In this document: piece by piece, positions 49,900 through 63,904 of the stretch
How positions within the stretch are numbered: position 1 is the stretch's first letter
Layout of the letters: the number at the start of each line of letters is the position of its first letter
Origin: a phage
DNA length: 64,000 bases
Direction: 5' to 3' (one strand)
Sequence record: PQ826431.1
Position numbers and translations under genes: made by a program
The notes under the pieces: generated by a model
Told to the model about the DNA's origin: nothing
Seen by the model: the letters and a program-made list of their open reading frames with translations, nothing else
Databases searched by the model: none

Positions 49900-50847
49900 C
49901 TACAAACTTTCAATAACCTGGCGTCGCAACTCGTTTGCATCTGCCAGATTATAATGTGTTCGAACATGTTCAGCCAAGAACAAGCCACGATCTTCCCGAT
50001 AGTTTGGATTGCGAAGAAGCTTAACAATTTCGTAATGCCATTCTGCTTTATTCTCTGCGTAAGCAACAGCGCGAGCATCTACAGGGTTAAAATAAGGTAA
50101 TACCTTAGAACAAACAATCGGAATACCTTTTGCTCCAGCTTCTAGGATTTTGAGATTACTTTTACAATTATTAAAATCATTATCTACCAAAGGAGCTATA
50201 GCAATAGCATGACTTTCGTAAACACTCATGTAATTATCTAAATCTTTTACAGCGGCTTTATATTTGGCATTTGGTAAATTTCTGCGAATCTTAATCCACT
50301 CTTGTCCCGTGATGCTCTGCGATGCTTCATACCCCGCAATAGTAAGAAGTTCATCATCGAAAGTATTAGAGACTAGTCGTAAATCGGGTTCGTGACTAGC
50401 ACCGCCAGCCCATACAACAGGGGTACCGGATGAACGATCATTTGACAAAGTGAATTGTCCGCTATCAAAAGGAAGTGCATTTCGGATCACAACGACATTT
50501 CTATTTAAGTGACGGATCTTGTATGCCAAGTATTCCGTAGTTACAATAACCACATCAGCAAGCTTAACCATAGCCACAATAGCATGAGTGTTTGACTCGT
50601 ATAGACTCGCTAAGTAATGTTCTGGATTAAGTTGGTAGAAATCATCTAAATCTACAACAACCTTAACACCTTGACGTTTCAAAGATAAAACGTATTCTGC
50701 ACCTTTAGAGTGGATACGGTTAAACACAACAATATCTTTCTTAGGTTGAAAATTATTGTTGTTAAATGGCATAACAATACGATGATAGTCACAACCACTA
50801 TGAGGTTTTGCATCAATTTTTAGTTTAGACCATTTTTTATTTGACAT
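49900..50847 (-). CDS. glycosyltransferase-like protein, paralog 2
   Basis: ORF track 49900-50886; likely start at internal ATG (MSNKKW) preceded by GAGGAGG; shares CDYHR, VVDLDD, LKILEAGAKGIP with paralog 1. Confidence 0.45.
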   Translation of the reverse strand: MSNKKWSKLKIDAKPHSGCDYHRIVMPFNNNNFQPKKDIVVFNRIHSKGAEYVLSLKRQGVKVVVDLDDFYQLNPEHYLASLYESNTHAIVAMVKLADVVIVTTEYLAYKIRHLNRNVVVIRNALPFDSGQFTLSNDRSSGTPVVWAGGASHEPDLRLVSNTFDDELLTIAGYEASQSITGQEWIKIRRNLPNAKYKAAVKDLDNYMSVYESHAIAIAPLVDNDFNNCKSNLKILEAGAKGIPIVCSKVLPYFNPVDARAVAYAENKAEWHYEIVKLLRNPNYREDRGLFLAEHVRTHYNLADANELRRQVIESL

Positions 50848-51520
50848 GTGCCAGTGCCTCCTCATAGGAAATTCGGATTTTCCCATTTTTAATATCCTCT
50901 AAAGATGCTTTATATTCTTCCCAGTTAATCCCGATAGCAGCTTCTTTCTCTTCTTTTGTCAGATTAGCAAAAGGCATAGGGTTGTTTCCAAAAACATCGT
51001 CTGGGTGGATATAAGCCATGATACGAAGTGGACAAGGTGTTGCCTGAATACCATGATTCAAACCAGCAGCTTTCAAACGGTGTCCCCATTCAGCATCTTC
51101 AAAACCATAGCCGTGAGTGTAAGGACGGAAATAACCCATCTTCTCAACAACGGCACGAGAATACATTGCAAATTGACACATTGCAAGTTCCCAGAGAATA
51201 ACTTCTCCTTTGCTTCCAACAACTTTATCTTTGAAATACTCCGGCATACCAAAGAAATCCCATCCTCCAGAGACAGCTTGATCTACAAAGTATGTTTCCC
51301 ATCCCTCCATGACTGGGTAGCAATCGTCGTCAAAAATAAACCAATAATCATAACCTTCTTCATAAAACTGGTGCATAAGTTCATTCCTGGCATAAGCTAC
51401 ACCTTTACGATCTGGATCGTTGAATACTCGAAAATCTGCACGTGGATCTGTTACAAGGTAGTCTTTAAGTGGACGGACACCTACAGTGATAACACCCACT
51501 CCAATTTTAATATTTTCCAT
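50837..51520 (-). CDS. glycosyltransferase (GT-A-like, DxD)
   Basis: FIFDDDCYP acidic motif after hydrophobic strand. Confidence 0.4.
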   Translation of the reverse strand: MENIKIGVGVITVGVRPLKDYLVTDPRADFRVFNDPDRKGVAYARNELMHQFYEEGYDYWFIFDDDCYPVMEGWETYFVDQAVSGGWDFFGMPEYFKDKVVGSKGEVILWELAMCQFAMYSRAVVEKMGYFRPYTHGYGFEDAEWGHRLKAAGLNHGIQATPCPLRIMAYIHPDDVFGNNPMPFANLTKEEKEAAIGINWEEYKASLEDIKNGKIRISYEEALAHVK

Positions 51521-51528
51521 TTTCTCTC

Positions 51529-52092
51529 CTAAATAGTTTTACTGTGATCATGACAGTGTAATAAATGATGTATAGACCGTTGAGGATTTGTTTGACCTAA
51601 TCTGTAAATGTGAAACAGATACATTCCCCGCATCAATCCTAACCTCTTTCCTTTTTCATGTAAAGTGCGAGAGAAAATTAAGTCGAATTGGATAGATTTT
51701 TCTTCGAAAGGAATTTCATTCCACAATGATTTTCTAAAAAGCAAGAAGAAACCTGCCAGAGGTGTTCCGAAAGGAACTTCTTCAACACTCACTTTATGAT
51801 ATTCTCTTGCAATCTTAGCATATTCTATATGGTTTAGAATATCTGGATCATCGTTAATTTGGTTAGAGAAAAGCTGATAACCACTGCCTAACCTGTTACA
51901 AGTTGCACCTATTACATCAAAAGGCGGGTTTGACATAACAAGCTCTTCAAGCATAGATGGTTGATCAGGTAGGAGGAACATTGTATCGGTATCTCTTAAA
52001 CACACCCAACTATCATCTGGAAGAACGGCAATGGCTTCATTGATAGCCTTGCCGATATTTCCTGTCAGATAGGGAGTAATATAATAAATCAT
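51529..52092 (-). CDS. putative glycosyltransferase-like protein
   Basis: LRDTDTMF DxD-like motif. Confidence 0.3.
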   Translation of the reverse strand: MIYYITPYLTGNIGKAINEAIAVLPDDSWVCLRDTDTMFLLPDQPSMLEELVMSNPPFDVIGATCNRLGSGYQLFSNQINDDPDILNHIEYAKIAREYHKVSVEEVPFGTPLAGFFLLFRKSLWNEIPFEEKSIQFDLIFSRTLHEKGKRLGLMRGMYLFHIYRLGQTNPQRSIHHLLHCHDHSKTI

Positions 52093-52108
52093 TCTCCCCT
52101 CCGTTATA

Positions 52109-52300
52109 TTAACTGTCAGCTACAATCCCACGTTTAATCATTTCTTGTTGAATCTGGATCACACGATCTCGTGCTTCCATATATTCTTTAAAAGATTCTT
52201 GGAGATGGTCACGAGCTACATCCCGTAGTTTAATCAGTTTGTCGTTTGTCACTTCTTGAAGAGAGATTTCGCCAGTTTCATTGGTCCCAAGCGTTTTCAT
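52109..52300 (-). CDS. small hypothetical protein
   Basis: 63 aa ORF. Confidence 0.25.
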   Translation of the reverse strand: MKTLGTNETGEISLQEVTNDKLIKLRDVARDHLQESFKEYMEARDRVIQIQQEMIKRGIVADS

Positions 52301-52556
52301 TTACAACCTCCTTAATAGCTACTGCACAGTTCTTACAAATACATTGACCTTTGTTCTTAGAAATTTCAATGTAAGGTTCATTTTCGTTTTCTCCGCGTCG
52401 TGAGTCGTATATTACTGTATTGAAGCAGACAACGCAAATGTTTTTAATAACGACATATTTTTGCACTTTCTGTTTAGTGCGAAAATTGACTTCAATGACT
52501 TCTCCCATCAATGAATCTCCCCTAAAATGTTGTTTTGAGACATTACTGCGGAGCAT
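52278..52556 (-). CDS. small zinc-ribbon protein
   Basis: CVVC ... CICKNC. Confidence 0.3.
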   Translation of the reverse strand: MLRSNVSKQHFRGDSLMGEVIEVNFRTKQKVQKYVVIKNICVVCFNTVIYDSRRGENENEPYIEISKNKGQCICKNCAVAIKEVVNENAWDQ

Positions 52557-52792
52557 TCTACAGCATCATGAGTCCTTGCAAAACGCTCCCACAACACAGC
52601 ATCTACTTTAAGAACCATACAAGGATAAATACTGTCGTTGATCATATCAATGCTATATTTATCTACATCCTTTTCATCTTCCATAAACAAAGTAGCGTAT
52701 GCTTCCAAATGCTTACGGGTGTAGTATACGTCCTCTTCGGTAAGACCGACAACCAGGTAACTTGCTACAACAACAGTATTATCTTCTTGCAT
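52508..52792 (-). CDS. hypothetical protein
   Basis: ORF track 52508-52855; likely start at internal ATG after GGGGAG RBS. Confidence 0.3.
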   Translation of the reverse strand: MQEDNTVVVASYLVVGLTEEDVYYTRKHLEAYATLFMEDEKDVDKYSIDMINDSIYPCMVLKVDAVLWERFARTHDAVECSAVMSQNNILGEIH

Positions 52793-52793
52793 T

Positions 52794-53315
52794 TTAACTC
52801 CCCTTTGGTAGATAGAAACCATGCACTTTATCTCGATAAACAAGACGCATATCACGTTCCCAGTGTGTCCTTATATTCCGTTTCTTGAAGTATAGAGCAC
52901 CTTTAGTAACATCTAAAACAGACCGCAATTCAGGAAAATGTTTCTCTAAATAAAGTAAACGCTCCGCTATTGCTTTTGCTTCCTGCCACTTATCTTTCTC
53001 TGTTACGTTAAAAGTTTTCGCATATGAGAATTGTCCTTTCTGGAACAAGACTCCTCTGACTGTGTTAGGGAAGTAGGTATCATTTCTTCTGTTGATTACC
53101 ACATTCCCAACGGCATTCATTCCTTTTTTACCCAGACCGCGACCTTCTGCGTAAATTGCACAAGCTAATAGAATTTTATCATTATATTGCTTTGTACATT
53201 TGTGAACTACTTTAGCGGTTTTTACGTTTGCAGCTTCGGCTTTCGCCACAACAGGTGTAAATGTAAAAGCAGTTAAGGATAGTAACGCAACTGTTACAAA
53301 GTTTTTTATCAGCAA
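52794..53315 (-). CDS. secreted cell-wall hydrolase, SleB/CwlJ-like (putative endolysin)
   Basis: Signal peptide ending AKA-EAA; motif CAIYAEGRGLGKKGMNAVGNVVINRRN...VLFQKGQFS; TTG start with AAGGAGG RBS. Confidence 0.55.
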   Translation of the reverse strand: MLIKNFVTVALLSLTAFTFTPVVAKAEAANVKTAKVVHKCTKQYNDKILLACAIYAEGRGLGKKGMNAVGNVVINRRNDTYFPNTVRGVLFQKGQFSYAKTFNVTEKDKWQEAKAIAERLLYLEKHFPELRSVLDVTKGALYFKKRNIRTHWERDMRLVYRDKVHGFYLPKGS

Positions 53316-53376: not shown

Positions 53377-53396
53377 GAGGGGGATTTCTCCCCCTC
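53377..53396. other. G-rich palindromic hairpin GAGGGGGA-TTTC-TCCCCCTC
   Basis: Perfect 8 bp stem; near-identical copy at about 33738-33756. Confidence 0.5.
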
Positions 53397-53414: not shown

Positions 53415-54017
53415 TTATGGACATTCATACCATTCTTTTTTACCACCGAAGGCCATCACCACATCACAAATATCCAGACCAGCTTTACCTACACCATATG
53501 CTTTCAGCTTCCATTCCCCATCTTCACGAACCAAGGAAGCCACGTGGCAGATTGTGTTGCCAGCTACTTCAGGAGCCAGGAAGTCAAAATCCAGAATTTC
53601 CACATTGCGCTCGGAGTCGAAGATTTTAAGCATACCTTCAGAAGCATGACCAAAACGTTTCAGACCTGTATCATCATCAATGGTCAGAACAAAGGCAATC
53701 TCTTGTGCATCAGGAGAGATTTTAGCCAGAGTAATATCAATCTGCTCCATGCTGCCAGTTCCATCACGAACATCGTCACCAGCGAAGGTAGAACGTTCAG
53801 GATCAAACTTGTTAGCATAGCAAACCAGATGACGTGCAGACAGCATTTCAGGATTACCAGCGGCATTGTGACGACAAACCAGTGCACTTACATCCAGATC
53901 CAGTTTAGAATCAGATTTCCAAGAGAATTCCAGGCGCAGTTCTTTCAGAGCCGGAGCAACTTTCTTCAGGGAAATTTTTTCGCTAGAGCCTTTTTTCAGG
54001 GAAATTTTATCAGTCAT
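53415..54017 (-). CDS. terD: TerD-family stress protein
   Basis: N-terminal KISLKKG, DLDVSAL, EIAFVLTIDD, GEWKLKAYGVGKAGL match canonical TerD blocks (compared with E. coli TerD from memory). Confidence 0.8.
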   Translation of the reverse strand: MTDKISLKKGSSEKISLKKVAPALKELRLEFSWKSDSKLDLDVSALVCRHNAAGNPEMLSARHLVCYANKFDPERSTFAGDDVRDGTGSMEQIDITLAKISPDAQEIAFVLTIDDDTGLKRFGHASEGMLKIFDSERNVEILDFDFLAPEVAGNTICHVASLVREDGEWKLKAYGVGKAGLDICDVVMAFGGKKEWYECP

Positions 54018-54032
54018 CTTTTGTCTCCTCTA

Positions 54033-54302
54033 TTATTTAAGTGTAATACCAGTTACAGTCAATTCTACTTCCAAAAGCTTAGATGTGTTTTGGATTGATA
54101 CTAATTGTGCATGATGGTTTAGTTCTACAGCAGAATAATCATTTTCCCCATCATCTACTTTTAAATAAACAATGATTTCACTAAGGTCTAAACCATTTTC
54201 GTCAAATGCATTTTCATAGACGAAAGTATCTCCTACATCCAAATCTTTAATGGTAAGGCATCGTTTATTTACTTTTTGCTCATCAATTTCGAAGTTTAAC
54301 AC
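54033..54302 (-). CDS. small protein, paralog B of a phage-specific pair
   Basis: Shares DLDVGDTF ... ELTVTGITLK with the 55324-55602 product. Confidence 0.4.
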   Translation of the reverse strand: MLNFEIDEQKVNKRCLTIKDLDVGDTFVYENAFDENGLDLSEIIVYLKVDDGENDYSAVELNHHAQLVSIQNTSKLLEVELTVTGITLK

Positions 54303-54531
54303 TTCTTCCTCCTAATGTTATCTCCGGTTTGTATATACGAAGAATTATAGCATTTTCATTTTCTTTGTCAACCCATTCTTCATAATCGGGCCATACATGA
54401 ATCTCCACTCTACTTACAATATCTTCCATTCGCACAGTCCCAATGAAATACTCTTTGAGACTGCGCATAATGAAAGCTTCTCTCTCGCGCCAATAATTTT
54501 CTATGACTTGAGAGGCAAGCTCGTCGATCAT
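54283..54531 (-). CDS. hypothetical protein
   Basis: 82 aa ORF. Confidence 0.3.
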   Translation of the reverse strand: MIDELASQVIENYWREREAFIMRSLKEYFIGTVRMEDIVSRVEIHVWPDYEEWVDKENENAIILRIYKPEITLGGRSVKLRN

Positions 54532-55322
54532 TTTTTAGCACCTACTTTAACAACCCACTCTCCGAACTCTTCAGATAAGAGTTTGTCATAAAGCTCTGAA
54601 TCTGTCAAGTCTAAATCTTTAATGCCAATAAAACCAACATTATCATAAGCATTTGCCAGTTCTTTCAGGAACCCAAACTTCTCATTACCAACGCCAACCA
54701 TGAACCAATAAATAGGTTTATTCTTATTCTCTTCAATAAGACGACGAACAGCACTAGGATCACCATTCTCACCATCCGTCTGGAAGAATACAACACCAGG
54801 GGTAACGTCAGCACCTGGTTCAGATACAGCTACAACTTTTTCACGCTCTACAGACACTGTTTCAGTTTTACCAAGCAGACGATTAAAGAAGCCTTTCTTT
54901 GGAGCCTCCTCTTGTACCACTTGTTTAGTGGTAATATATTTGGTAACAGTGCCAAAATACTCATCGTAGATATCTGCCATTACAGGGGCGTAATTTGTTC
55001 CACCTCCGATACGAACATTACGCATACATTTACCAACATAGTCATCGTAAACGTCTGCTGTTGCTGGAGTAAGCTCTTGGGAACTCGTATTGAAGGCCCA
55101 CATATCAATTTGTTGATTATCGTCGAACAGCATACCAAAAGGAAGCAGTTTACCTACAAAATCACTCACTACCCCACTAGAATATAGACCATGCATACTA
55201 CCAGAAATATCTAGAGCACATGCTACACGAAGAACAATCTTACCTTCATTCAGGTTCTTATTCTTTTTCAGAGAGAAAGCAAGGTTTTCTTGACGTTTTT
55301 TCAGGCTGATTTTCTCGGACAT
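54528..55322 (-). CDS. vWA-domain protein, TerF C-terminal-like
   Basis: MIDAS motif ALDISGSMHG; N-terminus KISLKK like TerD. Confidence 0.6.
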   Translation of the reverse strand: MSEKISLKKRQENLAFSLKKNKNLNEGKIVLRVACALDISGSMHGLYSSGVVSDFVGKLLPFGMLFDDNQQIDMWAFNTSSQELTPATADVYDDYVGKCMRNVRIGGGTNYAPVMADIYDEYFGTVTKYITTKQVVQEEAPKKGFFNRLLGKTETVSVEREKVVAVSEPGADVTPGVVFFQTDGENGDPSAVRRLIEENKNKPIYWFMVGVGNEKFGFLKELANAYDNVGFIGIKDLDLTDSELYDKLLSEEFGEWVVKVGAKK

Positions 55323-55323
55323 A

Positions 55324-55602
55324 TTATTTCTCCTTCTTAAGTGTAATATTGGTAACTTCTAAATCTACTTCCACCATATTTGTATCTGGTGGGATGCAAT
55401 GAGTATAGCCTCGTTGTGCTAGTGATCCATTAATACAAATCGCACTGTTTGTGGAATTTTTAATGAACACCAAGTTACGGTAGGTATCCAACCCTGCGTC
55501 TTCATAGGCATCATAATACATGAATGTGGCCCCTACGTCAAGATCTTCGAAAGCAATAGGTAAATCCTGACTTTTTTCTTCTTGAATATTGAATCTAAAC
55601 AC
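55324..55602 (-). CDS. small protein, paralog A of a phage-specific pair
   Basis: ORF track 55324-55668; likely GTG start after GAGGAGG; DLDVGATF ... LEVTNITLKKEK. Confidence 0.4.
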   Translation of the reverse strand: MFRFNIQEEKSQDLPIAFEDLDVGATFMYYDAYEDAGLDTYRNLVFIKNSTNSAICINGSLAQRGYTHCIPPDTNMVEVDLEVTNITLKKEK

Positions 55603-56158
55603 GCATACCTCCTCTACCAATTTTGAAGCCCAAATCGTAAGCTTCCTTAGTGATCTTTTGTAACTCACTTATAGGAAGTGTTACAAGAGGATCATCTTCT
55701 TCAATTTCCATCTTGTCATCTTCTGTTTCAATGAGAGTATTATGCACTTTGTGATAAGGGTTGTCAACACGTTTAAACTTATTCTTTTCTGTGCTGAAAA
55801 AACAATCTGGATCTTCTTCACCATCACCCCAACCTTGGTTAGGATCTCCGTCAGATTGTTCTGTAGGGATTTCACCTGTAAAGTACTCTTCCAGCACCAT
55901 AGCAATACCGTCCCTTGGATTTGAGGAATGCATTAAATCACAAACCTTACCCCAATCCATAGCCCATTCGAACCGTTCACGAACGCCATTTTCATCCTCC
56001 TTTCCAGAGAAAACACAACCATAACTATCATAGTTGCCATACATCTCTTCAATAACAACACCGTCCTTCAAAAGAAAGAGGTAGCAAGGTGATCCGTCGA
56101 AAGAAGTAGAAAGGGCAGCTTTGCCCGATTCTTTGCACAAAAAGCTAAAACAACCCAT
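55595..56158 (-). CDS. hypothetical acidic protein
   Basis: 187 aa ORF. Confidence 0.3.
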   Translation of the reverse strand: MGCFSFLCKESGKAALSTSFDGSPCYLFLLKDGVVIEEMYGNYDSYGCVFSGKEDENGVRERFEWAMDWGKVCDLMHSSNPRDGIAMVLEEYFTGEIPTEQSDGDPNQGWGDGEEDPDCFFSTEKNKFKRVDNPYHKVHNTLIETEDDKMEIEEDDPLVTLPISELQKITKEAYDLGFKIGRGGMRV

Positions 56159-56361
56159 TACAAACCCTCCTTCAGATTATCAAGAGCTACAGTGGTTTCA
56201 CAAGAGTCTCCATAAGTTTTATGATGTTCCAGAAAAGCTTCGGGTCCACCCCAGTCATTATCTTGTGTATTCCAGCCATCAATAAAAGCATCTTCAATGA
56301 TTGTGATCAGTTCTTGTCGGGTTAACTGGATAATATTAGGATCGTTATCGTAGTTAAACAT
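56158..56361 (-). CDS. small hypothetical protein
   Basis: 67 aa ORF. Confidence 0.25.
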   Translation of the reverse strand: MFNYDNDPNIIQLTRQELITIIEDAFIDGWNTQDNDWGGPEAFLEHHKTYGDSCETTVALDNLKEGL

Positions 56362-56527
56362 CTTCTTCCTCCTCTAAAATATGGAACCCGTAATTACAAT
56401 AATCCTGAAAGGTTTCGTGCGCAAGATCTTCTATATCCTCTTGAGACATATCATCTTCAATTTCGATATCCACAACCTCATTGCATCCACACCAAGCAGT
56501 TTCAATATTCACTCGTAATGTTTTCAT
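56354..56527 (-). CDS. small Cys-containing protein (57 aa, not in ORF track)
   Basis: ATG overlapping upstream stop (TAATG). Confidence 0.25.
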   Translation of the reverse strand: MKTLRVNIETAWCGCNEVVDIEIEDDMSQEDIEDLAHETFQDYCNYGFHILEEEEDV

Positions 56528-56724
56528 TACTCCTCCTCCTCATTGAAGTCAATATCTGCAAGGAGTTCGAATTTACGGAAGTTACGACAACCTTCATAAA
56601 TATAACAATCACGACAAACTGCTAGAACACTTGCGGGATATATACCTCCCATCGGTGCGAATCGTTTTTCGTCATCATAACGGACACCAATGTCTTCATC
56701 AATTATATAGATACGGATTCTCAT
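56527..56724 (-). CDS. small hypothetical protein
   Basis: 65 aa ORF, CRDC...GC. Confidence 0.25.
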   Translation of the reverse strand: MRIRIYIIDEDIGVRYDDEKRFAPMGGIYPASVLAVCRDCYIYEGCRNFRKFELLADIDFNEEEE

Positions 56725-57833
56725 TTACCAAGCCCTCGTTTCACAGCAGCTACCATCCCGTCTTCCAGAGATTGAACTTCATTAATATAATCAACACGAG
56801 CAGCACGGGCTTCCGTATTGATGCGGTTAGTTTCTTCCAACATCTTAACCAAGTTTTCCTGATCGTGACGCAGAGTTTCAATATCCAACACTTGACGGTT
56901 AGCCAGTGCTGCTGCTTCGATCTGATTCTGTGTGGCAAGATCGCTACCCAGTTTAATTGCCAGGTTAAATTCATCAAGAACGTTATTCTGCGTCTCTGCT
57001 GCTTTCATTTGACGTAAGCTCTCGATATACATTGAGAAGTTAGCAGAGTAAGCAGGAATAACATTATTTACTATGTTACGCGCAGATCGCATTAAGCTTG
57101 CAGAAACTTTTTGCATACCTTGTACACGCGGTCCCATTTGGACACACAGTAGGCGCAATGCTTTTAAATCTGCAATACGAATCTCCAGAAGATCCAAAGT
57201 ATCTCGGATCACTTGTCGCTGTTCTACTGCATCTTCTGGAAGAGCAGCCAAAGCTTGTTCTTCTTTTTCATAGGTTGCTGTTAGAAGCTGCATATCTCGG
57301 TTCAAACTTGCAGCATATTGTCCAATAGCTTGATGCAGCTTTTCAAGATATACCAAGGAATCTTCTTCTTTGCGAATATCCATTTGAAGGTTCTTTACCA
57401 ACTCTTCAATACGGTTATTAACATTATCAAACTCCCCGAACAGGTCTTCTTTCATACCCATAACTTTTTTAATGAGTTTAGTAATACCCTTGCTTTGTTT
57501 AATAGAGTTTGGATCAAGTTGTTTTGCCTGTTTAATCAAAGCTGTGAGTCGTTCACTCATCTGATCGCCTTGATTACTACGTTGATGTTTTAACACCTCG
57601 GCATTCAAGGAACGCAAGGTTGTTCCTGCCTCTGCCCCAATCTCTTCAATCTCTTGTCGGGTCATAGAAGGCAAAACTGGAACTTCTTGCGGTGCCGCTG
57701 GTGCATAAACAGGACTGGCATCTAACACGCTTGGAGCGAATACAGATTTACTTGCATCTGTTGTTGCAGCGAATACACTCATTTCAGACTTCTTCTGACC
57801 ACCAGTAGCTGCTTTTAAAAATGGACTTGTCAT
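56721..57833 (-). CDS. telA: TelA-like toxic-anion-resistance family protein
   Basis: 370 aa, all-helical, acidic; call rests mainly on size, composition and the TerD/TerC/vWA neighbourhood. Confidence 0.4.
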   Translation of the reverse strand: MTSPFLKAATGGQKKSEMSVFAATTDASKSVFAPSVLDASPVYAPAAPQEVPVLPSMTRQEIEEIGAEAGTTLRSLNAEVLKHQRSNQGDQMSERLTALIKQAKQLDPNSIKQSKGITKLIKKVMGMKEDLFGEFDNVNNRIEELVKNLQMDIRKEEDSLVYLEKLHQAIGQYAASLNRDMQLLTATYEKEEQALAALPEDAVEQRQVIRDTLDLLEIRIADLKALRLLCVQMGPRVQGMQKVSASLMRSARNIVNNVIPAYSANFSMYIESLRQMKAAETQNNVLDEFNLAIKLGSDLATQNQIEAAALANRQVLDIETLRHDQENLVKMLEETNRINTEARAARVDYINEVQSLEDGMVAAVKRGLGK

Positions 57834-58420
57834 TCTTCATTCTCCTCTTCTGCATCTCTTATATATGGTGAAACACCGTACTCTTTAGCTACTTTAACCC
57901 AATCATCCCATTTATACAACCATAATTTTCCTTCAGTTCCTTCTTTATCTGATTTCAACCACATGTTAGGTTGCTTGCCTGGGTACATGCGATTAGGTTT
58001 ACGATTATAACCTCTAACACATCTTGTCGCAAACCTATCTACCAGAACAAGAACATATTTATATTCGTGGTTCAACGGCTCTTTGGAAGTGGCTTTAGGA
58101 TTAGCCCCTAACTCTGCTGCCAGTTTTTGCCAATGAGCACCGTGTCTACTAAACTTACCCATACAACCATCAATAGCATGAGCAATTTCGTGCTTCATTG
58201 TATCCACGATCATATCTCTTGTGGAGTTCTTATGCAAGTGCCAATTTACAACAACAATTTTATCTCGGTAGTTGCACCAACCGAAAGAGTTATTCACTTT
58301 GTTTCTAACACAAGCTTTATATCCTGCTTCACGTAACATGTTGTAGTAAACAGGAAAATCTTCTTTTATTTCCTGCATCACTTCCCACCACAAGAGTTGC
58401 AAGTCTCTCTCGGTATGCAT
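57830..58420 (-). CDS. SprT-like zinc metalloprotease domain protein
   Basis: HEIAH zinc-binding motif followed by HGAHW. Confidence 0.5.
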   Translation of the reverse strand: MHTERDLQLLWWEVMQEIKEDFPVYYNMLREAGYKACVRNKVNNSFGWCNYRDKIVVVNWHLHKNSTRDMIVDTMKHEIAHAIDGCMGKFSRHGAHWQKLAAELGANPKATSKEPLNHEYKYVLVLVDRFATRCVRGYNRKPNRMYPGKQPNMWLKSDKEGTEGKLWLYKWDDWVKVAKEYGVSPYIRDAEEENEE

Positions 58421-58423
58421 AAC

Positions 58424-59017
58424 TTACACCTTAAAAGCGAAATGCGTGGTCGTGGCTTCAAAATCAGGGCCAGATAAACTTGCACTGAAATCTGAAATAT
58501 TTGTAATTAAAAAGCTTTTATGCATACCTAACACAGCCACGCTTTCAATATCTTCTACTAACATTTCAATCATGTTAGAAACATGGCTGAACGTATAGTT
58601 TTGTTTTTTGATGGTGTAGAAAGAAAGACTCCCACCTGCTGTATAAGATACCTCTTCAAAATCTTTAATCGTATATTGTGTGCCATCAGTAAAGAAAATG
58701 GTAGCTTTATTAGTAGCACGTTTCTTGTTTTTTGGTCCTTTTTTACGTTTACTGCGAGTAGGCAAACCGTTTGGAAATACTGTAGCTACAAATTCTTCAG
58801 GAGAAACCTCCTTACCGAAATCATAACCGTAAGAAACAGCGTCTATAAACTCGTCGTCTTCATTTTTAAAATAATGAAAATAGGGCCAATTTGAGAGATT
58901 ATCGAGCATCTTATGCTCATCCACAGCAGAGAACGTATCCCTCAAAGCACGTGTGATTTGCAAAGCATTAGGCAAACTTTTAACACCTGTAATGGAAGTA
59001 CGAATAGAAATTGTCAT
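58424..59017 (-). CDS. hypothetical protein
   Basis: 197 aa ORF. Confidence 0.3.
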   Translation of the reverse strand: MTISIRTSITGVKSLPNALQITRALRDTFSAVDEHKMLDNLSNWPYFHYFKNEDDEFIDAVSYGYDFGKEVSPEEFVATVFPNGLPTRSKRKKGPKNKKRATNKATIFFTDGTQYTIKDFEEVSYTAGGSLSFYTIKKQNYTFSHVSNMIEMLVEDIESVAVLGMHKSFLITNISDFSASLSGPDFEATTTHFAFKV

Positions 59018-59031
59018 TGTTTTTCTCCTTA

Positions 59032-59469
59032 TTAACGTCGCTTGCTACGAGATGAACTCTTTTTACTTAAAGGGCTATTGTAAGATTTACGAGTTGTATA
59101 GCTACTATTTGTTTTAAAAGTTTGTCTCGGCTTTTCATAAGTTTTTATCTCTTGTTTAGGCTTACCATAAAAATTAGTTTTCGGTTTAGGTGTATTATAA
59201 TGCTTATTAATAATCGTTCTGTTATCGTTATAATCCCCACTGTTACGATTACTACCACCACTCATCATATGCCCTAACAACATACCTGTAGCAAACTCAC
59301 CAACACCGCTACTACTAGAACCGCCACCATTGTTGATAATAGTTGTATCTCCGTCAGATCCTTGTTGAGCGTATTGTTGAGGAGGTTGTTGGTATTGTGC
59401 AGGATTTGTTTCATCCTCGCAAGCTGTTAAAAAGATACAACCAATTAAAATCAGGGCTAGTTTTTTCAT
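59032..59469 (-). CDS. lipoprotein
   Basis: ORF track 59032-59544; likely start at MKKLALILIG after AGGAAAG RBS; lipobox LTA-C; Gly/Ser/Asn-rich mature part. Confidence 0.5.
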   Translation of the reverse strand: MKKLALILIGCIFLTACEDETNPAQYQQPPQQYAQQGSDGDTTIINNGGGSSSSGVGEFATGMLLGHMMSGGSNRNSGDYNDNRTIINKHYNTPKPKTNFYGKPKQEIKTYEKPRQTFKTNSSYTTRKSYNSPLSKKSSSRSKRR

Positions 59470-59656
59470 ATTTGCTTTCCTCATTTTGACTATTAATACA
59501 TCTGTGTTTGAAATCTCCAGAGAAGCAATAAAGTTGCTCTCCATCTCGGTATAAACTCACTTTACTGCCGTTGATTACGCTTGTCAATACAAAAATTACA
59601 ACAAACAACCCTATTGCAAAACAAATATTTTCAAACACAATCAACAAGTATTTCAT
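59411..59656 (-). CDS. small membrane protein (uncertain)
   Basis: 81 aa with one TM segment; overlaps lipoprotein start by about 60 nt. Confidence 0.2.
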   Translation of the reverse strand: MKYLLIVFENICFAIGLFVVIFVLTSVINGSKVSLYRDGEQLYCFSGDFKHRCINSQNEESKYEKTSPDFNWLYLFNSLRG

Positions 59657-60003
59657 TTTAAAAATACCTCATCATCAGTTTCATTATCCCAGAAGAACAA
59701 ATCCCAACCATTCGGATCATTCCATTTGGCTGCTGGAGAAGTCCATATTTGTTCGATATCAATATTCAAAACTTCACCGTTTCGTTTTGAAACAGCTTTA
59801 GTTAATTCCCAACGAGATACAGGCTCTACTTCCCCTGAACCACTCCCACAACAAGCTACCACGTTAGGAGGCAAATTAATTGGATCTTTGGTCACGATCA
59901 TAACGCTTACCCCAGGGTAAACTTTTGAAAGATAATCTAAAACGTAATCCACATCACCAGATAAATCCCAAACAAGTTCTTGAATTTCATCAAAATTATT
60001 CAT
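59653..60003 (-). CDS. hypothetical protein
   Basis: 116 aa ORF. Confidence 0.3.
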   Translation of the reverse strand: MNNFDEIQELVWDLSGDVDYVLDYLSKVYPGVSVMIVTKDPINLPPNVVACCGSGSGEVEPVSRWELTKAVSKRNGEVLNIDIEQIWTSPAAKWNDPNGWDLFFWDNETDDEVFLK

Positions 60004-60045
60004 AAGTCTCTCCTATAAAATAGCCTCCCGAAGGAGGCTCATCTA

Positions 60046-61020
60046 TTAAACAGCAGCTTCTTCTTTTTCAGGGAAGATAAAGCTTGCAATAACACCAAGA
60101 GCTAATGTGCTTAGAACAATCATCAGACTTACGTTAGGGGAAATATCATGCGGGAGGAATGACCATTTGGCATGAAGTGTTTCACCGAACGGGTGATACA
60201 TAAGTTTAGCACCGACAAACACCAGAACCACAGCAACAGCTTTCTCTAAGTGAACCAGATATTTCACAGCTACACTTAACACAAAGAAAAGTGCACGTAA
60301 ACCAAGAACAGCCATCAGCATTGCAGAATAAACTAGCAGAGGTTCTTGTGTCACACCGATCACAGCCGGAACTGAATCAAAAGAGAAGACAATATCTGTA
60401 AGCTCAATAACAAACACACAAAGAAGAGCAGGAGTTGCATATTTAATACCATTCTTAATGGTGATGAACTTTTCACCATCCAGTGCATTGTGCACAGGCA
60501 GAACTTTACCTACTAAACGAACAGCCCAATGCTTAGAGTAATCAATATCCTCTTCTTCGTCACCACCTTTGATGATAGCCACGGCAGACCAAGCTACAAT
60601 CAAACCGAACAACACTTGGACCGACCAATGAAGGTTAAACAAAGCGGTCCCTGCTGCAACAAAAATACCTCGGAAGACAATGGCTCCTGCAATCCCCCAA
60701 AGTAAAATCTTATGTTGGAGATGTGTGCTCTTAATTCCAAAGCTTGCAAAAATTGCCATGAACACCATCAGGTTATCTACAGAAAGACTCTTTTCCAACA
60801 CATAGCCACTTAGGAAAAGCGCGGCAAACTCTTTACCATGTTCTACCCAAATGAATGCGTAATATCCTAAAGCTAAAGCAATCCAAAAAACAGACCAAAG
60901 CAAAGCAGATTTAATTCCAATTTCTTTATTCTCTTTATGACCAAAGAAATCGATACCAATAGACAATGCCAAAATACCAACTAAAACAACTACATCAATA
61001 ATTGGGAAACCAAGTTGCAT
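60046..61020 (-). CDS. terC: TerC-family integral membrane protein
   Basis: Multi-pass membrane protein with signature YVLEKSLSVDNLMVFMAIF. Confidence 0.7.
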   Translation of the reverse strand: MQLGFPIIDVVVLVGILALSIGIDFFGHKENKEIGIKSALLWSVFWIALALGYYAFIWVEHGKEFAALFLSGYVLEKSLSVDNLMVFMAIFASFGIKSTHLQHKILLWGIAGAIVFRGIFVAAGTALFNLHWSVQVLFGLIVAWSAVAIIKGGDEEEDIDYSKHWAVRLVGKVLPVHNALDGEKFITIKNGIKYATPALLCVFVIELTDIVFSFDSVPAVIGVTQEPLLVYSAMLMAVLGLRALFFVLSVAVKYLVHLEKAVAVVLVFVGAKLMYHPFGETLHAKWSFLPHDISPNVSLMIVLSTLALGVIASFIFPEKEEAAV

Positions 61021-61037
61021 TCTTTTCTCCTCTCTTT

Positions 61038-61096
61038 GCGGGGAACTATTCCCCGCTTCATGTGATACATCTTACTCTTTTTAAGAACTATGTCAA
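61038..61096 (-). promoter_or_regulatory. putative promoter plus 5'-UTR hairpin upstream of TerC gene
   Basis: On - strand TTGACA, 16 nt spacer, TAAGAT, then GCGGGGA-loop-TCCCCGC hairpin and AGAGGAG RBS. Confidence 0.4.
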
Positions 61097-61099
61097 CAC

Positions 61100-61321
61100 T
61101 TATTTTGTTGAATGAGAGGAAAAGATTCCTCGTAATACAGCCAGAATAAACGAAACACAAACCACGGTCCAGAAGGTTACTGGGACAGTGATATCTGCAT
61201 GACCCATAACTTCAGCAACATAGTTGTAAGCCAGCAACAGTAACCAAGCTGGAATCAAACTAAGCATAAAAGCAATAACAAAAAAGCTTACCACTGCAAC
61301 AATACCTGCAAAAACACCCAT
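61100..61321 (-). CDS. small membrane protein
   Basis: 73 aa, two hydrophobic helices. Confidence 0.35.
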   Translation of the reverse strand: MGVFAGIVAVVSFFVIAFMLSLIPAWLLLLAYNYVAEVMGHADITVPVTFWTVVCVSFILAVLRGIFSSHSTK

Positions 61322-61333
61322 ACTAATCTCCTC

Positions 61334-61807
61334 TTAAAGTTTATAAATAGTCACATCGTGACCTGTTTTTACTAAAGTTTCTTCAATCATCACTTGGATG
61401 ATAGCCCAATTACCTCCAGCATATCCAGCGCCAATCATAGGTAAGCCGATCTTACATTTTTTGTCACGGAGAAGCAAATCGTTAGCCATAGCTATTAGTG
61501 CATCGTAAAGTGCATCATAGTCCAACTGACGACCTTTAGCATTGTATCCGTAACGGTATTGCCCGTATAGATTATATACCAAAGGGTCTGATTGTTCGTC
61601 TGGCACCCCTAAACTAAAACAACCTAGTTTACTTTGATCACCAGCCATTGTGTCTAAGTCTGCTGCATATGCGTAAGGAAATGCTTGTTTGATTTGTGGG
61701 GCAATACCTGCCCCCATATTACACATACAGTTGCAACAATGAGCAATAACAGTTACTTCACCTGCTTTAGCGGCATCAATAAGATTACCTCTTTTCATTT
61801 TAAGCAT
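61334..61807 (-). CDS. macro-domain protein
   Basis: VIAHCCNCMCNMGAGIAPQIKQAF fits macro pattern; ORF track extends to 61912 but AAGGAG-supported ATG at 61807 avoids overlap with upstream gene. Confidence 0.45.
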   Translation of the reverse strand: MLKMKRGNLIDAAKAGEVTVIAHCCNCMCNMGAGIAPQIKQAFPYAYAADLDTMAGDQSKLGCFSLGVPDEQSDPLVYNLYGQYRYGYNAKGRQLDYDALYDALIAMANDLLLRDKKCKIGLPMIGAGYAGGNWAIIQVMIEETLVKTGHDVTIYKL

Positions 61808-61820
61808 TTTTAGCTCCTTA

Positions 61821-62648
61821 TTACAGAATGTGTTGTTTTGTGTAACGATCCAAGAATTCAAAGTTTTCAGCATACTTTGAAATTCGGTTGTAACCTTCTC
61901 CCAAACATCCAAAGAAAAGTTGCTCTACATAGTAATGTGGCAATTGGCTAAGAATGATTTTGAAGTCTTCATGATTTTGGCCCATAAGATACTTAATAGG
62001 ACGAACAAGACACTGTGCATCACGTTCTTCATTAATCATTTTAACAAACGCTTCTGGTGTATTAATGTAGTTAAAATTCAGTTTAGCTTCGGTATCTGCT
62101 TGATTACCTTCGTATTTTGCAAAATACAAGAAGTAAACATCATTTTTAACTTGATTTTCATCAAGGATCTCAATCAGTTTGTCTTCATGCGTTCCAGTGA
62201 TATTTACATCATCAATGAATACAAGCTTCTTATCACCCCAGAATTCTTTGTTGCAGTAGAATGTATCCCCATCAATAAGTTTCTTACGACTAGCTTTATC
62301 CAAGAAACCATAATCGTTGATATAGCTAACTTTACGATGAATAATGTCCAGTTCTGCTGAACGACCTTGATCATATTGTGATTGCAACATATTAAAATAA
62401 TTAATAAAATGATTTGTCATCATTGTTGCAGCATTATGCACATGGTTATAAGGAGAAGGAATGATAACAAATTGTTCCCCAATATGTTTCATTGCCACTT
62501 GAGCAAAAAACTGAAGTGCCAATTCTTTACCCATACGACGCGCAGCTTGGTTACTACCAAATTTTAATTTTGAATAATCTTGGATATCAAAAGTAGCAGT
62601 TTCCAGGTCATCAAATTTATTTGCAAAAATTTGAGTTTGATTACGCAT
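61821..62648 (-). CDS. phosphoribosyltransferase-domain protein
   Basis: PRPP-binding motif KLVFIDDVNITGTHEDK. Confidence 0.55.
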   Translation of the reverse strand: MRNQTQIFANKFDDLETATFDIQDYSKLKFGSNQAARRMGKELALQFFAQVAMKHIGEQFVIIPSPYNHVHNAATMMTNHFINYFNMLQSQYDQGRSAELDIIHRKVSYINDYGFLDKASRKKLIDGDTFYCNKEFWGDKKLVFIDDVNITGTHEDKLIEILDENQVKNDVYFLYFAKYEGNQADTEAKLNFNYINTPEAFVKMINEERDAQCLVRPIKYLMGQNHEDFKIILSQLPHYYVEQLFFGCLGEGYNRISKYAENFEFLDRYTKQHIL

Positions 62649-63297
62649 TTACAATTTCTCCTCTTTTAAGTTTCTCTAGTAAGTCGTTAGGGTTCTTAAT
62701 ATGACAGAAGTTAAATCCTAAGTCAACACATTTTCCATCATATTCTTCACTATCGCCTACGTGCAACACTTCGTGCCCTAACAGAGGGATCGGAGAATAC
62801 GTGAGCGTGCGAGCAAAGAATCGCGGATCTGGTTTACAAAGTAAAGCTTCATCCGAGAAATGGGTGAACTCAAAACAATTCCAACTATCAAACTTACAAG
62901 CACGACGCAGGATATCCCCTGATATGAAGTTGGTATTGCTCTTAATACTCAAATCATAACGCCCTGAAAGATACAGCAAGTATATCGGCAGATCCACGGC
63001 TACGTGTGGTGGAAACTTAAGGAACCACTGTTCACACTCGAAACGAAGCTTTGCAGACTTCCAAGGCGTTATCCCAAGTTCAGAACCAAGTCTTTCCCAG
63101 GCGTATGCTGCACACTCGGCTTTGCCTTGAAGTGCTGCATTATCCAGTTCCTTTTTGATCTTTTTATAAGCTGCTCTTGCTTCCACTTCCGTAATATCTC
63201 CATATTTTGCGATAGTCCAGGCTCGCATGTCTGCGTAATTGGAGTTTGCTGTGATCAGTGTGTTCCATACATCAAAAGAGATATGTTTAATAGTCAT
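62641..63297 (-). CDS. HAD-superfamily hydrolase
   Basis: Motif I ISFDVWNTLI, later K-containing CKPDPRFF and acidic HVGDSEEYD. Confidence 0.55.
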   Translation of the reverse strand: MTIKHISFDVWNTLITANSNYADMRAWTIAKYGDITEVEARAAYKKIKKELDNAALQGKAECAAYAWERLGSELGITPWKSAKLRFECEQWFLKFPPHVAVDLPIYLLYLSGRYDLSIKSNTNFISGDILRRACKFDSWNCFEFTHFSDEALLCKPDPRFFARTLTYSPIPLLGHEVLHVGDSEEYDGKCVDLGFNFCHIKNPNDLLEKLKRGEIVNA

Positions 63298-63298
63298 A

Positions 63299-63904
63299 TT
63301 AAGCCCACCATGCGTCTAAGTTAAGATTACTGTCCACTACCACTTGTTCTATGTGGTAGCCTTTTATCTGTATCCCACTGTTCAAGAGCATATCATACGC
63401 TTCATTGAAACGCAACTTATCTTCTGCGGAATATAAGCGAGCATTATAAAATCGGTAATCAATTTCTTCAGCATTAGAAGAAATACGGAAGAAGTTTGTT
63501 TCTACTTCGGGATCACTTGCTGAAGTCTTAATGTGAACTTCTCCGTAATTTTCTTTACTTAGATCCATGAAAAGAACACAGGCAACATGTTTAAACATTC
63601 GTTCCAGTTTGTAACGAACAACATTGAAACCTGCATTCTCAAGTTTTTCTACACACTGCAACATTAAAGTAGTGTCGAGATCGCTTTGATACTTTGTTAA
63701 CATACGATCACGTTGAGACTTTGTATCCCGATGTAAATCAATTGTTGTGCATTTGGCACCAATAATCTTAGCTGCTTTCATCAACTCTTCAGAACTAACG
63801 TTAGATAAAGTAAGATGAAAATGAGCTTTCCACACTTTTTTAGCAGGGACACCAAAAGATTTATCCCCACTATTCGGCATGTTGACTACTACACTATGTT
63901 GCAT
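63299..63904 (-). CDS. hypothetical protein
   Basis: 201 aa ORF with GAGGAG RBS; contains HLTL, no confident family assignment. Confidence 0.3.
   Translation of the reverse strand: MQHSVVVNMPNSGDKSFGVPAKKVWKAHFHLTLSNVSSEELMKAAKIIGAKCTTIDLHRDTKSQRDRMLTKYQSDLDTTLMLQCVEKLENAGFNVVRYKLERMFKHVACVLFMDLSKENYGEVHIKTSASDPEVETNFFRISSNAEEIDYRFYNARLYSAEDKLRFNEAYDMLLNSGIQIKGYHIEQVVVDSNLNLDAWWA

Follow-up and report, generated by a model that had tools for sequence, protein, structure and literature searches.

A conserved Ter gene set in the replication arm of a Phapecoctavirus: gene content, recurring modules and a tentative envelope role

Gene content of the Ter cluster

Sequence record PQ826431.1 derives from a phage, and a stretch of 64,000 nucleotides (nt) of it, hereafter the window, was analysed as a whole; all positions given below are those of the window. 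On the minus strand, between positions 53415 and 63904, the window carries a run of about 10.5 kb in which genes of the Ter type, namely those for TerD, a TerF-like vWA protein, a TelA-like protein and an Alx-type TerC, are co-directional and tightly packed together with genes for a HAD hydrolase and a phosphoribosyltransferase (PRTase), with about 11 further small open reading frames (ORFs) lying between the Ter genes (Table 1). We refer to this run as the Ter cluster. It comprises two modules that recur elsewhere: the HAD-PRTase_3 pair, and an envelope set made up of TerC or DUF475, a lipoprotein, a protein of 197 amino acids (aa), TelA, a PHROG 11278 protein, the vWA protein and TerD.

Twenty-one ORFs of the cluster were scanned, and Pfam calls were judged against the curated cut-offs. 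The families that an earlier note had named from the letters of this DNA (HAD hydrolase, PRTase, macro domain, TerC, SprT-like metalloprotease, TelA, TerF-type vWA and TerD) were all recovered by Pfam, PDB and NCBIfam profile searches on the minus strand where the note had placed them, the lipoprotein being read from the sequence. Its description of overlapping start and stop codons also stood, with overlaps of 4-20 nt at four gene pairs (p82/vWA, TelA/SprT, HAD/PRTase and p89/p82), as did its remark that TerA, TerB and TerZ are missing: phmmer found a single TerD-domain ORF in the whole window, and Pfam scans found no TerB family member among the cluster ORFs. Its picture of one co-directional run held for the shared strand and the tight packing; it did not hold for the unity of the run, which is split by promoters and terminators, and the 11 or so interleaved ORFs were missing from its list.

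Table 1. Features of the Ter cluster in window coordinates, listed in the direction of transcription (PRPP, phosphoribosyl pyrophosphate; MIDAS, metal-ion-dependent adhesion site; phi92, a Justusliebigvirus phage; 05F01, a Klebsiella phage; ASO2A, a phage otherwise about 99% identical to this one)
Feature	Position	Strand	Basis and remarks
201-aa ORF (p201)	63299..63904	-	No Pfam or PDB match
HAD-IA hydrolase	62641..63297	-	Pfam Hydrolase 4e-4, 21.2 bits, below the cut-off of 26.4
PRTase_3 (ComF-like phosphoribosyltransferase)	61821..62648	-	Pfam PF15610 2e-41; PRPP loop D146 D147...T151 G152 intact
Macro domain protein, TARG1/SCO6735/DarG-like class, 157 aa	61334..61807	-	Pfam 21.7 bits, just below the cut-off of 22.0
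73-aa protein, two predicted transmembrane segments	61100..61321	-	Hydropathy; kept in phi92
Sigma-70-like promoter TTGACA-16-TAAGAT (61096-61069) and hairpin GCGGGGAA-TAG-TTCCCCGC in the 5'-untranslated region	61038..61096	-	Before TerC
TerC-family inner-membrane protein, Alx subfamily	60046..61020	-	Pfam PF03741 3e-40; TIGR03718 319 bits, cut-off 246
Intrinsic terminator AGCCTCC-TTCG-GGAGGCT, then T-run	60022..60039	-	After TerC; annotated as terminator in ASO2A
116-aa acidic ORF (p116)	59653..60003	-	PHROG 27498 only; Phapecoctavirus only, no phi92 match
81-aa single-pass membrane protein	59411..59656	-	Hydropathy; kept in phi92
Predicted lipoprotein	59032..59469	-	Signal peptide and lipobox LTAC in MKKLALILIGCIFLTAC, read from sequence; kept in phi92 and 05F01
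197-aa ORF next to TelA	58424..59017	-	PHROG 27550; homologues in phi92 and 05F01
SprT-like zinc metalloprotease	57830..58420	-	Pfam PF10263 4e-9, 36.7 bits, cut-off 25.6; H77-E78-x-x-H81
TelA-like protein	56721..57833	-	Pfam PF05816 3e-33; PHROG 5890; 79% identical to phi92
Three small acidic ORFs of 65, 57 and 67 aa	56158..56724	-	PHROG matches only; weak DUF7167 match
187-aa ORF	55595..56158	-	N-terminal ~135 aa a widespread phage domain
92-aa ORF (PHROG 11278)	55324..55602	-	Directly upstream of vWA, also in phi92 and 05F01
vWA-TerF-like protein	54528..55322	-	Pfam PF10138 2e-37; MIDAS D38-x-S40-x-S42 intact, read from sequence
82-aa ORF (p82)	54283..54531	-	PHROG scan; Phapecoctavirus only, no phi92 match
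89-aa ORF (p89), second PHROG 11278 copy	54033..54302	-	Paralogue of 55324..55602
TerD-domain protein	53415..54017	-	Pfam PF02342 3e-28, above cut-off; PDB 2kxt 1.5e-15
GC-rich hairpin GAGGGGGA-GAAA-TCCCCCTC	53377..53396	-	After TerD; annotated terminator in ASO2A; phi92 terminator at the same position

TerD is 100% identical across the sampled Phapecoctavirus records and 81% identical to the phi92 protein. On the minus strand, the N-termini of TerD (53958-54017) and of the vWA protein (55263-55322) are nearly alike (MTDKISLKKGSSEKISLKK versus MSEKISLKKRQENLAFSLKK); possibly the vWA protein has kept the first TerD-domain strand, in the manner of a split TerF. TerC has about nine hydrophobic segments and shares 34% identity with the E. 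coli Mn2+ exporter Alx. A recent capture of this gene from a host was considered and rejected on the grounds of that low identity and of the absence of any nucleotide match among 5,426 genomes of E. coli.

The HAD protein matches PDB entry 2om6 over its full length (8e-5), with which it shares the motif I FDVWNTL, and gives weak NCBIfam HAD-IA matches to DREG-2 and YjjG; it is predicted to supply the phosphatase step in the synthesis of a nucleoside-like metabolite. The residues of the PRPP loop of PRTase_3 coincide with invariant columns of the alignment. The HAD gene lies directly upstream of PRTase_3 in every context compared (phi92, 05F01, phage-like contigs and bacterial loci), and a scan of one genome per species located this PRTase subfamily in 18 loci; the pair stands alone in Rhizobiaceae. 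IncHI2/R478 plasmids were rejected as the source of the nearest bacterial counterpart of the PRTase, all plasmid matches being rhizobial except for one from Hymenobacter. Pfam scans found neither ATP-grasp nor TIM-barrel lyase families among the 21 cluster ORFs; both were reportedly named as further biosynthetic partners in Ter systems by Anantharaman and co-workers in 2012.

Conservation and gene order in related phages

The window belongs to an ordinary Phapecoctavirus (subfamily Stephanstirmvirinae), since the whole cluster region shares 99.3% identity with Escherichia phage iGC_PHA_EC001 and 98.4% with phAPEC8, and at least 80% of it is present in 63 GenBank phage records. The phage genome is of about 150 kb and is not that of a jumbo phage. 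Base composition and strand skew flip at about 38 kb in the window, and the annotation of a near-identical phage has structural genes on the plus strand followed by a replication arm on the minus strand, in the order SSB, DNA polymerase, primase/helicase, glycosyltransferases, endolysin, the Ter cluster and anaerobic ribonucleotide reductase. The cluster thus sits in the minus-strand arm for replication and nucleotide metabolism, which is where the earlier note had located it. For some of the near-identical phages in GenBank the host field reads E. coli K-12 MG1655.

Substitutions in the cluster are mostly synonymous, with pooled dN/dS values of 0.07, 0.14 and 0.18 against three relatives, indicating purifying selection, and TerD, TelA and TerC are among the proteins best conserved with respect to phi92. 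All 20 of the ORFs scanned against PHROG fall into existing families, and TerC, TelA, VWA, SprT-like, PRTase and a stress protein are labels already in use in deposited Phapecoctavirus genomes. In searches with tblastn, TelA found 223 phage records, PRTase_3 157 and TerD 148.

The backbone shared with phi92 runs HAD, PRTase_3, macro, two-transmembrane protein, TerC, single-pass protein, lipoprotein, 197-aa protein, TelA, 67-aa protein, 187-aa protein, PHROG 11278 protein, vWA and TerD. In 05F01, which represents a third lineage, the macro gene lies 2.2 kb upstream of the HAD-PRTase pair and does not adjoin the PRTase, and ADP-ribosylation, radical SAM and nrdD/nrdG genes separate the PRTase from the envelope genes. 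In that phage a DUF475 protein (5e-93, with a further match to TerC at 3e-17) takes the TerC slot (13512-14576 of the contig examined), and this replacement by a TerC-superfamily paralogue suggests that the role was kept and not just the gene.

The same families meet again outside this subfamily. The order TerC-x-TerD-x-vWA-HAD-PRTase_3 occurs on two unrelated phage-like contigs, and HAD-PRTase_3 adjoins TerD paralogues in four Bacteroidota loci, three of which also contain TerC and one TelA; in Mucilaginibacter aquaedulcis the order is TerD-TerD-HAD-PRTase_3-TerD-TerD-TelA-x-TerC. Given the synteny in phi92 and 05F01, the purifying selection and the linkage of the same families in phage-like contigs and Bacteroidota chromosomes, the arrangement is not a product of chance. 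The linkage of the two modules is recurrent, yet not obligatory.

Some further observations were made on individual relatives. In ASO2A the 187-aa ORF shares only 85% amino acid identity with its counterpart here and the two-transmembrane ORF (61100-61321) 79%, a sharp local divergence that suggests recombination inside the cluster. A contig binned as 'MAG: Proteobacteria bacterium' (JAEZZU010000022.1, our locus L013) holds a PRTase_3 99% identical to that of this phage among the same neighbour genes, and the records MG065650, MG065645 and OP562383, by name Campylobacter phages B15/A145 and Acinetobacter phage ABPW7, share 98-99% identity with Phapecoctavirus or phi92-like phages of E. coli. 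These names probably stem from errors of binning or of host labelling.

Transcription signals

Promoters were called as matches to the sigma-70 consensus. The promoter and hairpin in front of TerC are annotated at the same position in relatives, and a comparable site precedes TerC in phi92. A perfect 12/12 match, TTGACA-16-TATAAT with the TG extension of an extended -10 element, lies at 54371-54344 on the minus strand, within the 82-aa coding region and some 35 nt ahead of the 89-aa ORF and TerD; by our estimate, about 0.005 such perfect matches would be expected by chance in the stretch. An 11/12 site at 55767-55739 precedes p114/vWA and is identical base for base in phi92. Positional counterparts of three promoter-like sites, those before TerC, p114/vWA and TerD, are found in phi92. 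Transcription is predicted to start near 61060, 55730 and 54337. The promoter-like site of the endolysin gene follows the hairpin after TerD.

With promoter-like sites inside the run and terminators within and after it, the run is not one operon, and as judged from these signals its genes are not on one transcript. Some bacterial TerC-family genes are preceded by a Mn2+ riboswitch, and one NCBIfam model bears the name R_switched_Alx. A riboswitch of this kind was rejected for the present TerC gene, whose leader of 79 nt gave no Rfam match at the gathering score or at E<=1, the yybP-ykoY Mn2+ riboswitch included.

Interleaved and neighbouring genes

The start codon of the macro gene was set after the annotation of relatives. 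Its product matches PDB entry 5e3b (SCO6735) at 2.5e-12, TARG1 at 3e-6 and Poa1p at 1e-3, together with DarG models at 1e-8 and 6e-10; a match over the whole domain supports its assignment as a putative TARG1/DarG-like macrodomain. The SprT-like gene is present in 05F01 and absent from phi92, and among the ORFs of 65, 57 and 67 aa only the last is kept in both of these phages.

The 187-aa ORF has 314 relatives, none with a Pfam domain, at 50-67% identity across the N-terminal ~135 aa. Relatives that we examined in context (L035, L036 and L037) are surrounded by genes of early or replication type, on phage contigs that include marine ones. A Ter-specific partnership of this protein was rejected, as the family is common and two of its members, looked at in context, come from unrelated phage contigs that carry no Ter genes. 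The vWA gene is flanked by the two paralogous small acidic PHROG 11278 ORFs (54033-54302 and 55324-55602), and the presence of the upstream copy at the same place in phi92 and 05F01 suggests that it is a partner of the vWA protein. Directly 3' of TerD, at 49900-53315 on the minus strand, are a gene for a SleB-type cell-wall hydrolase (PF07486, 2e-17) and, as annotated in relatives, four glycosyltransferase genes, all of them further envelope-directed functions beside the Ter set.

The 201-aa ORF at the upstream end, which falls in the span of the earlier note, is neither a HAD nor a Ter gene and probably stands outside it. It is absent from phi92, and in other phages its homologues are located elsewhere (L033, 8001-9021; L034, 8001-8549). 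The family counts 260 representatives of about 170-210 aa with conserved positions H30, T32, K51, R97, K99, E101, E122, H124, S142, E186 and D191, and among 31 relatives scanned we found fusions to NUDIX (eight), HD_4 (one) and HTH (one). One homologue, on a phage contig, overlaps the start of an Acb1 anti-CBASS gene near a NADAR gene. The protein may be a nucleotide-associated domain, and the family may represent an undescribed domain of nucleotide processing or counter-defence. A PADLOC model labelled AbiEi matches the ORF at 5e-13; the Pfam AbiEi families match neither it nor 30 of its relatives. PDB searches with the single sequence and with two profiles gave no match. A 2H phosphoesterase was considered and rejected: H30-x-T32 is present but the second motif reads H124-x-K126, and hhalign assigned probabilities of 4.5% with ThpR of E. 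coli and 0.8% with an Acb1.

Possible functions of the cluster

The best explanation of the cluster, which we put forward tentatively, is that it is a conserved Ter set of the Stephanstirmvirinae serving envelope and metal homeostasis and the exclusion of rival phages and colicins. In the first module, PRTase_3 would couple PRPP with a base-like compound, and the 5'-phosphate would then be taken off by the HAD-IA hydrolase to yield a nucleoside-like small molecule. The second module would act at the envelope, through an Alx-type TerC as divalent-cation transporter, the small membrane proteins, the lipoprotein, TelA, a vWA protein with its MIDAS and a TerD of the Ca2+ type; the lipoprotein and the small membrane proteins fit such a role. 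Following a published comparative-genomic model (PMC7824862), TerD and the vWA protein would bind metal and possibly a ligand, and TelA and TerC would act at the inner membrane. The genes would be read early by the host RNA polymerase from several sigma-70-like promoters, without a Mn2+ riboswitch, and the envelope and metal homeostasis of the infected cell would be reset in such a way that it becomes refractory to superinfecting phages and colicins.

Observed directly are the gene identities and motifs, the synteny, the selection and the linkage; the chemistry of the first module, its coupling to the second, the early timing and the exclusion are inferred. In favour of this account stand the family assignments, the gene order kept in phi92, the purifying selection, the DUF475 replacement in 05F01, the repeated linkage of the two modules, the promoter-like sites with counterparts in phi92, the lack of an Rfam riboswitch match and the strong transcription of TerD genes in jumbo gut phages. 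Bacterial ter operons confer the same phenotype, and superinfection exclusion was proposed for phage Ter systems in PMC7824862. For terZABCDEF of plasmid R478 and the ter islands of Klebsiella or E. coli, phage inhibition, colicin resistance and tolerance to metals and tellurite have been shown experimentally: both phage inhibition and colicin resistance are lost on insertion into terC, terD or terZ, and deletion of terC in K. pneumoniae leads to larger plaques and lower Zn/Mn tolerance (PMC12054061).

Several points weigh against the explanation. The overall number of promoter matches is near that of shuffled sequence, and the Ca2+-binding loop of TerD is partly degenerate. HAD phosphatases typically have an aspartate two residues after the first (Asp+2), which is absent from the motif I FDVWNT of the present protein, and no substrate or product is on record for PRTase_3. 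There are no Ter genes near HAD-PRTase_3 in Xanthomonas, Rhizobium and Caulobacter phages and in rhizobial plasmids, and in 05F01 the pair lies about 8 kb from the envelope module; the occurrence of the pair alone and its distance in 05F01 indicate that coupling of the two modules is not obligatory. The function of phage Ter genes is stated to be unknown in PMC11162368 and in the phiPsa374 literature, and no experiment on any phage Ter gene is known.

An alternative of lower standing, which we consider unlikely, regards the cluster as an auxiliary module for metal supply, in which TerC/Alx and the metal-binding TerD and vWA proteins tune Mn2+, Zn2+ and Ca2+ for phage metalloenzymes or periplasmic metalation. 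The placement of TerC in the Alx metal-homeostasis subfamily, with its resemblance to the E. coli Mn2+ exporter, points in this direction, although an exporter would lower cytoplasmic Mn2+ with no obvious benefit to replication. The effect of terC on Zn and Mn tolerance in Klebsiella (PMC12054061), the ribonucleotide reductase genes that adjoin the cluster in relatives and in the locus L011, and the pairing of TerD genes with a Ca2+ ATPase in Jug phages (PMC12880540) are likewise consistent with metal supply, which nevertheless leaves TelA, the lipoprotein and HAD-PRTase_3 without explanation. It is compatible with the envelope and exclusion role rather than exclusive of it.

That role can also be given a more specific form, which is doubtful in our judgement: a nucleoside-like molecule made by HAD-PRTase_3 would be sensed by TerD/vWA/TelA at the inner membrane and would, via TerC, close the cell to rivals and colicins as a signal-based exclusion by the phage, the 201-aa protein separately representing an undescribed family of nucleotide-processing counter-defence proteins.

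Counter-defence has also to be weighed for the cluster as a whole; it is, with host takeover, a possible role suggested by the earlier note. On this account, to which we give little credence, the macro protein would undo ADP-ribosylation such as that by DarT, nucleotide-derived immune signals would be broken down or redirected by the 201-aa protein and HAD-PRTase_3, and the Ter proteins would blunt membrane-acting abortive-infection (Abi) effectors. The macro protein does match DarG and TARG1, the company that relatives of the 201-aa ORF keep (Acb1, NADAR, and fusions to NUDIX and HD_4) is suggestive, and in 05F01 the gene annotated 'ADP-ribosylation' lies just downstream of the PRTase; the macro and 201-aa genes are, however, not stably linked to the Ter genes, and none of the PADLOC models picks up the Ter, PRTase or HAD proteins. 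Taken one by one, the macro and 201-aa genes are the most plausible candidates for counter-defence, which could hold for them without extending to the whole cluster.

Finally, it is improbable that the run is no functional unit, independent morons and early genes being held together by inherited synteny in one subfamily: promoters and terminators split it, many of the ORFs in between are confined to particular lineages, members of the 187-aa family are frequent in phages that lack Ter genes, HAD-PRTase_3 is autonomous elsewhere and 05F01 has other genes inserted between the modules, but TerC, TerD, vWA, HAD and PRTase_3 come together again on unrelated phage-like contigs, HAD-PRTase_3 sits with TerD paralogues, and in some loci with TelA and TerC, in Bacteroidota, and in 05F01 a DUF475 protein stands in for TerC in the same slot.

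What Ter systems do biochemically has been a question since the 1990s, and a compact phage set could be used to test the roles of TerC, TerD, TelA and the vWA protein. The K-12 MG1655 hosts of near-identical phages make tests of a nucleoside-like product and of competitor exclusion practical.

Comparison with known Ter systems

With the terZABCDEF genes of R478 (IncHI2) and the ter islands of Klebsiella and E. coli the phage cluster shares the TerC and TerD families. Unlike them, it has neither TerB nor the multiple TerD paralogues (TerZ/A/E/F) that mark Ter-dependent stress-response systems; TelA is present here and is not among the terZABCDEF names, and PRTase_3 does not match R478 plasmids. 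Other marks of such systems are found in the cluster, namely TerD, TerC, TelA and a TerF-type vWA protein with a linked PRTase and HAD whose product is predicted. The claim of the earlier note that these are the components of bacterial ter loci is borne out by gene order in Mucilaginibacter (L026), where HAD likewise lies directly upstream of PRTase_3 among TerD, TelA and TerC. That locus has four TerD paralogues and, among the ORFs scanned, no vWA-TerF-like, macro or SprT gene, whereas the phage has one TerD and a vWA protein, and the phage PRTase is 29-31% identical to the PRTases of bacterial loci.

Iyer et al. 2021 (PMC7824862) described phage Ter systems, some of them 'complete' in having PRTase and HAD, and proposed superinfection exclusion for them; their examples are the 'complete' system of Acinetobacter phage ME3, Caulobacter jumbo phages and 'related smaller tailed phages'. 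The present cluster shows the same combination of Ter envelope genes, PRTase and HAD in a virulent tailed phage. It resembles those systems in having PRTase, HAD, TerD, TerC, TerF-type vWA and TelA in a lytic phage, and in the proposed nucleoside-like signal and membrane response against superinfection; it differs from them in its non-jumbo genome and in the interleaving of the Ter genes with small ORFs. ME3 is not among the organism names listed in the tblastn searches with PRTase_3, TelA and TerD, so its proteins are not close relatives of those described here. The virulent phages phiPsa374 (terC-terD-terF-telA) and phiKp34 have the four-gene envelope set, again with a function stated as unknown; in contrast to the present phage, no HAD-PRTase pair is reported among their ter genes, and their TelA is about 23% identical. 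Jumbo gut phages transcribe their TerD genes at high levels (PMC12880540).

The closest comparison is with phi92, of a sister genus, and phAPEC8, which belong to the same subfamily and have the same backbone HAD-PRTase-Macro-TM-TerC-...-TelA-...-vWA-TerD (TM, transmembrane protein). A passage of PMC11162368 refers to an 'alx-like ter cluster' in phi92, states its function as unknown and credits the description to the 2012 phi92 genome paper, and one paper mentions 'tellurite resistance' in passing. Relative to phi92, the window has in addition the SprT-like gene, the 201-aa ORF, p116, p82, p57, p65 and the second PHROG 11278 copy. The earlier note had proposed a distinct variant with added macro and SprT-like genes. 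This proposal is not supported: SprT is absent from phi92 and the macro gene does not adjoin the PRTase in 05F01, so that both are separable from the Ter core, the phage is a standard Phapecoctavirus, and Ter genes with PRTase and HAD in phages were already in the account of Iyer et al. As a discovery the locus adds little, being present in dozens of deposited genomes and its concept already published; the region is the already known phAPEC8-like Ter set and not a new kind of system.

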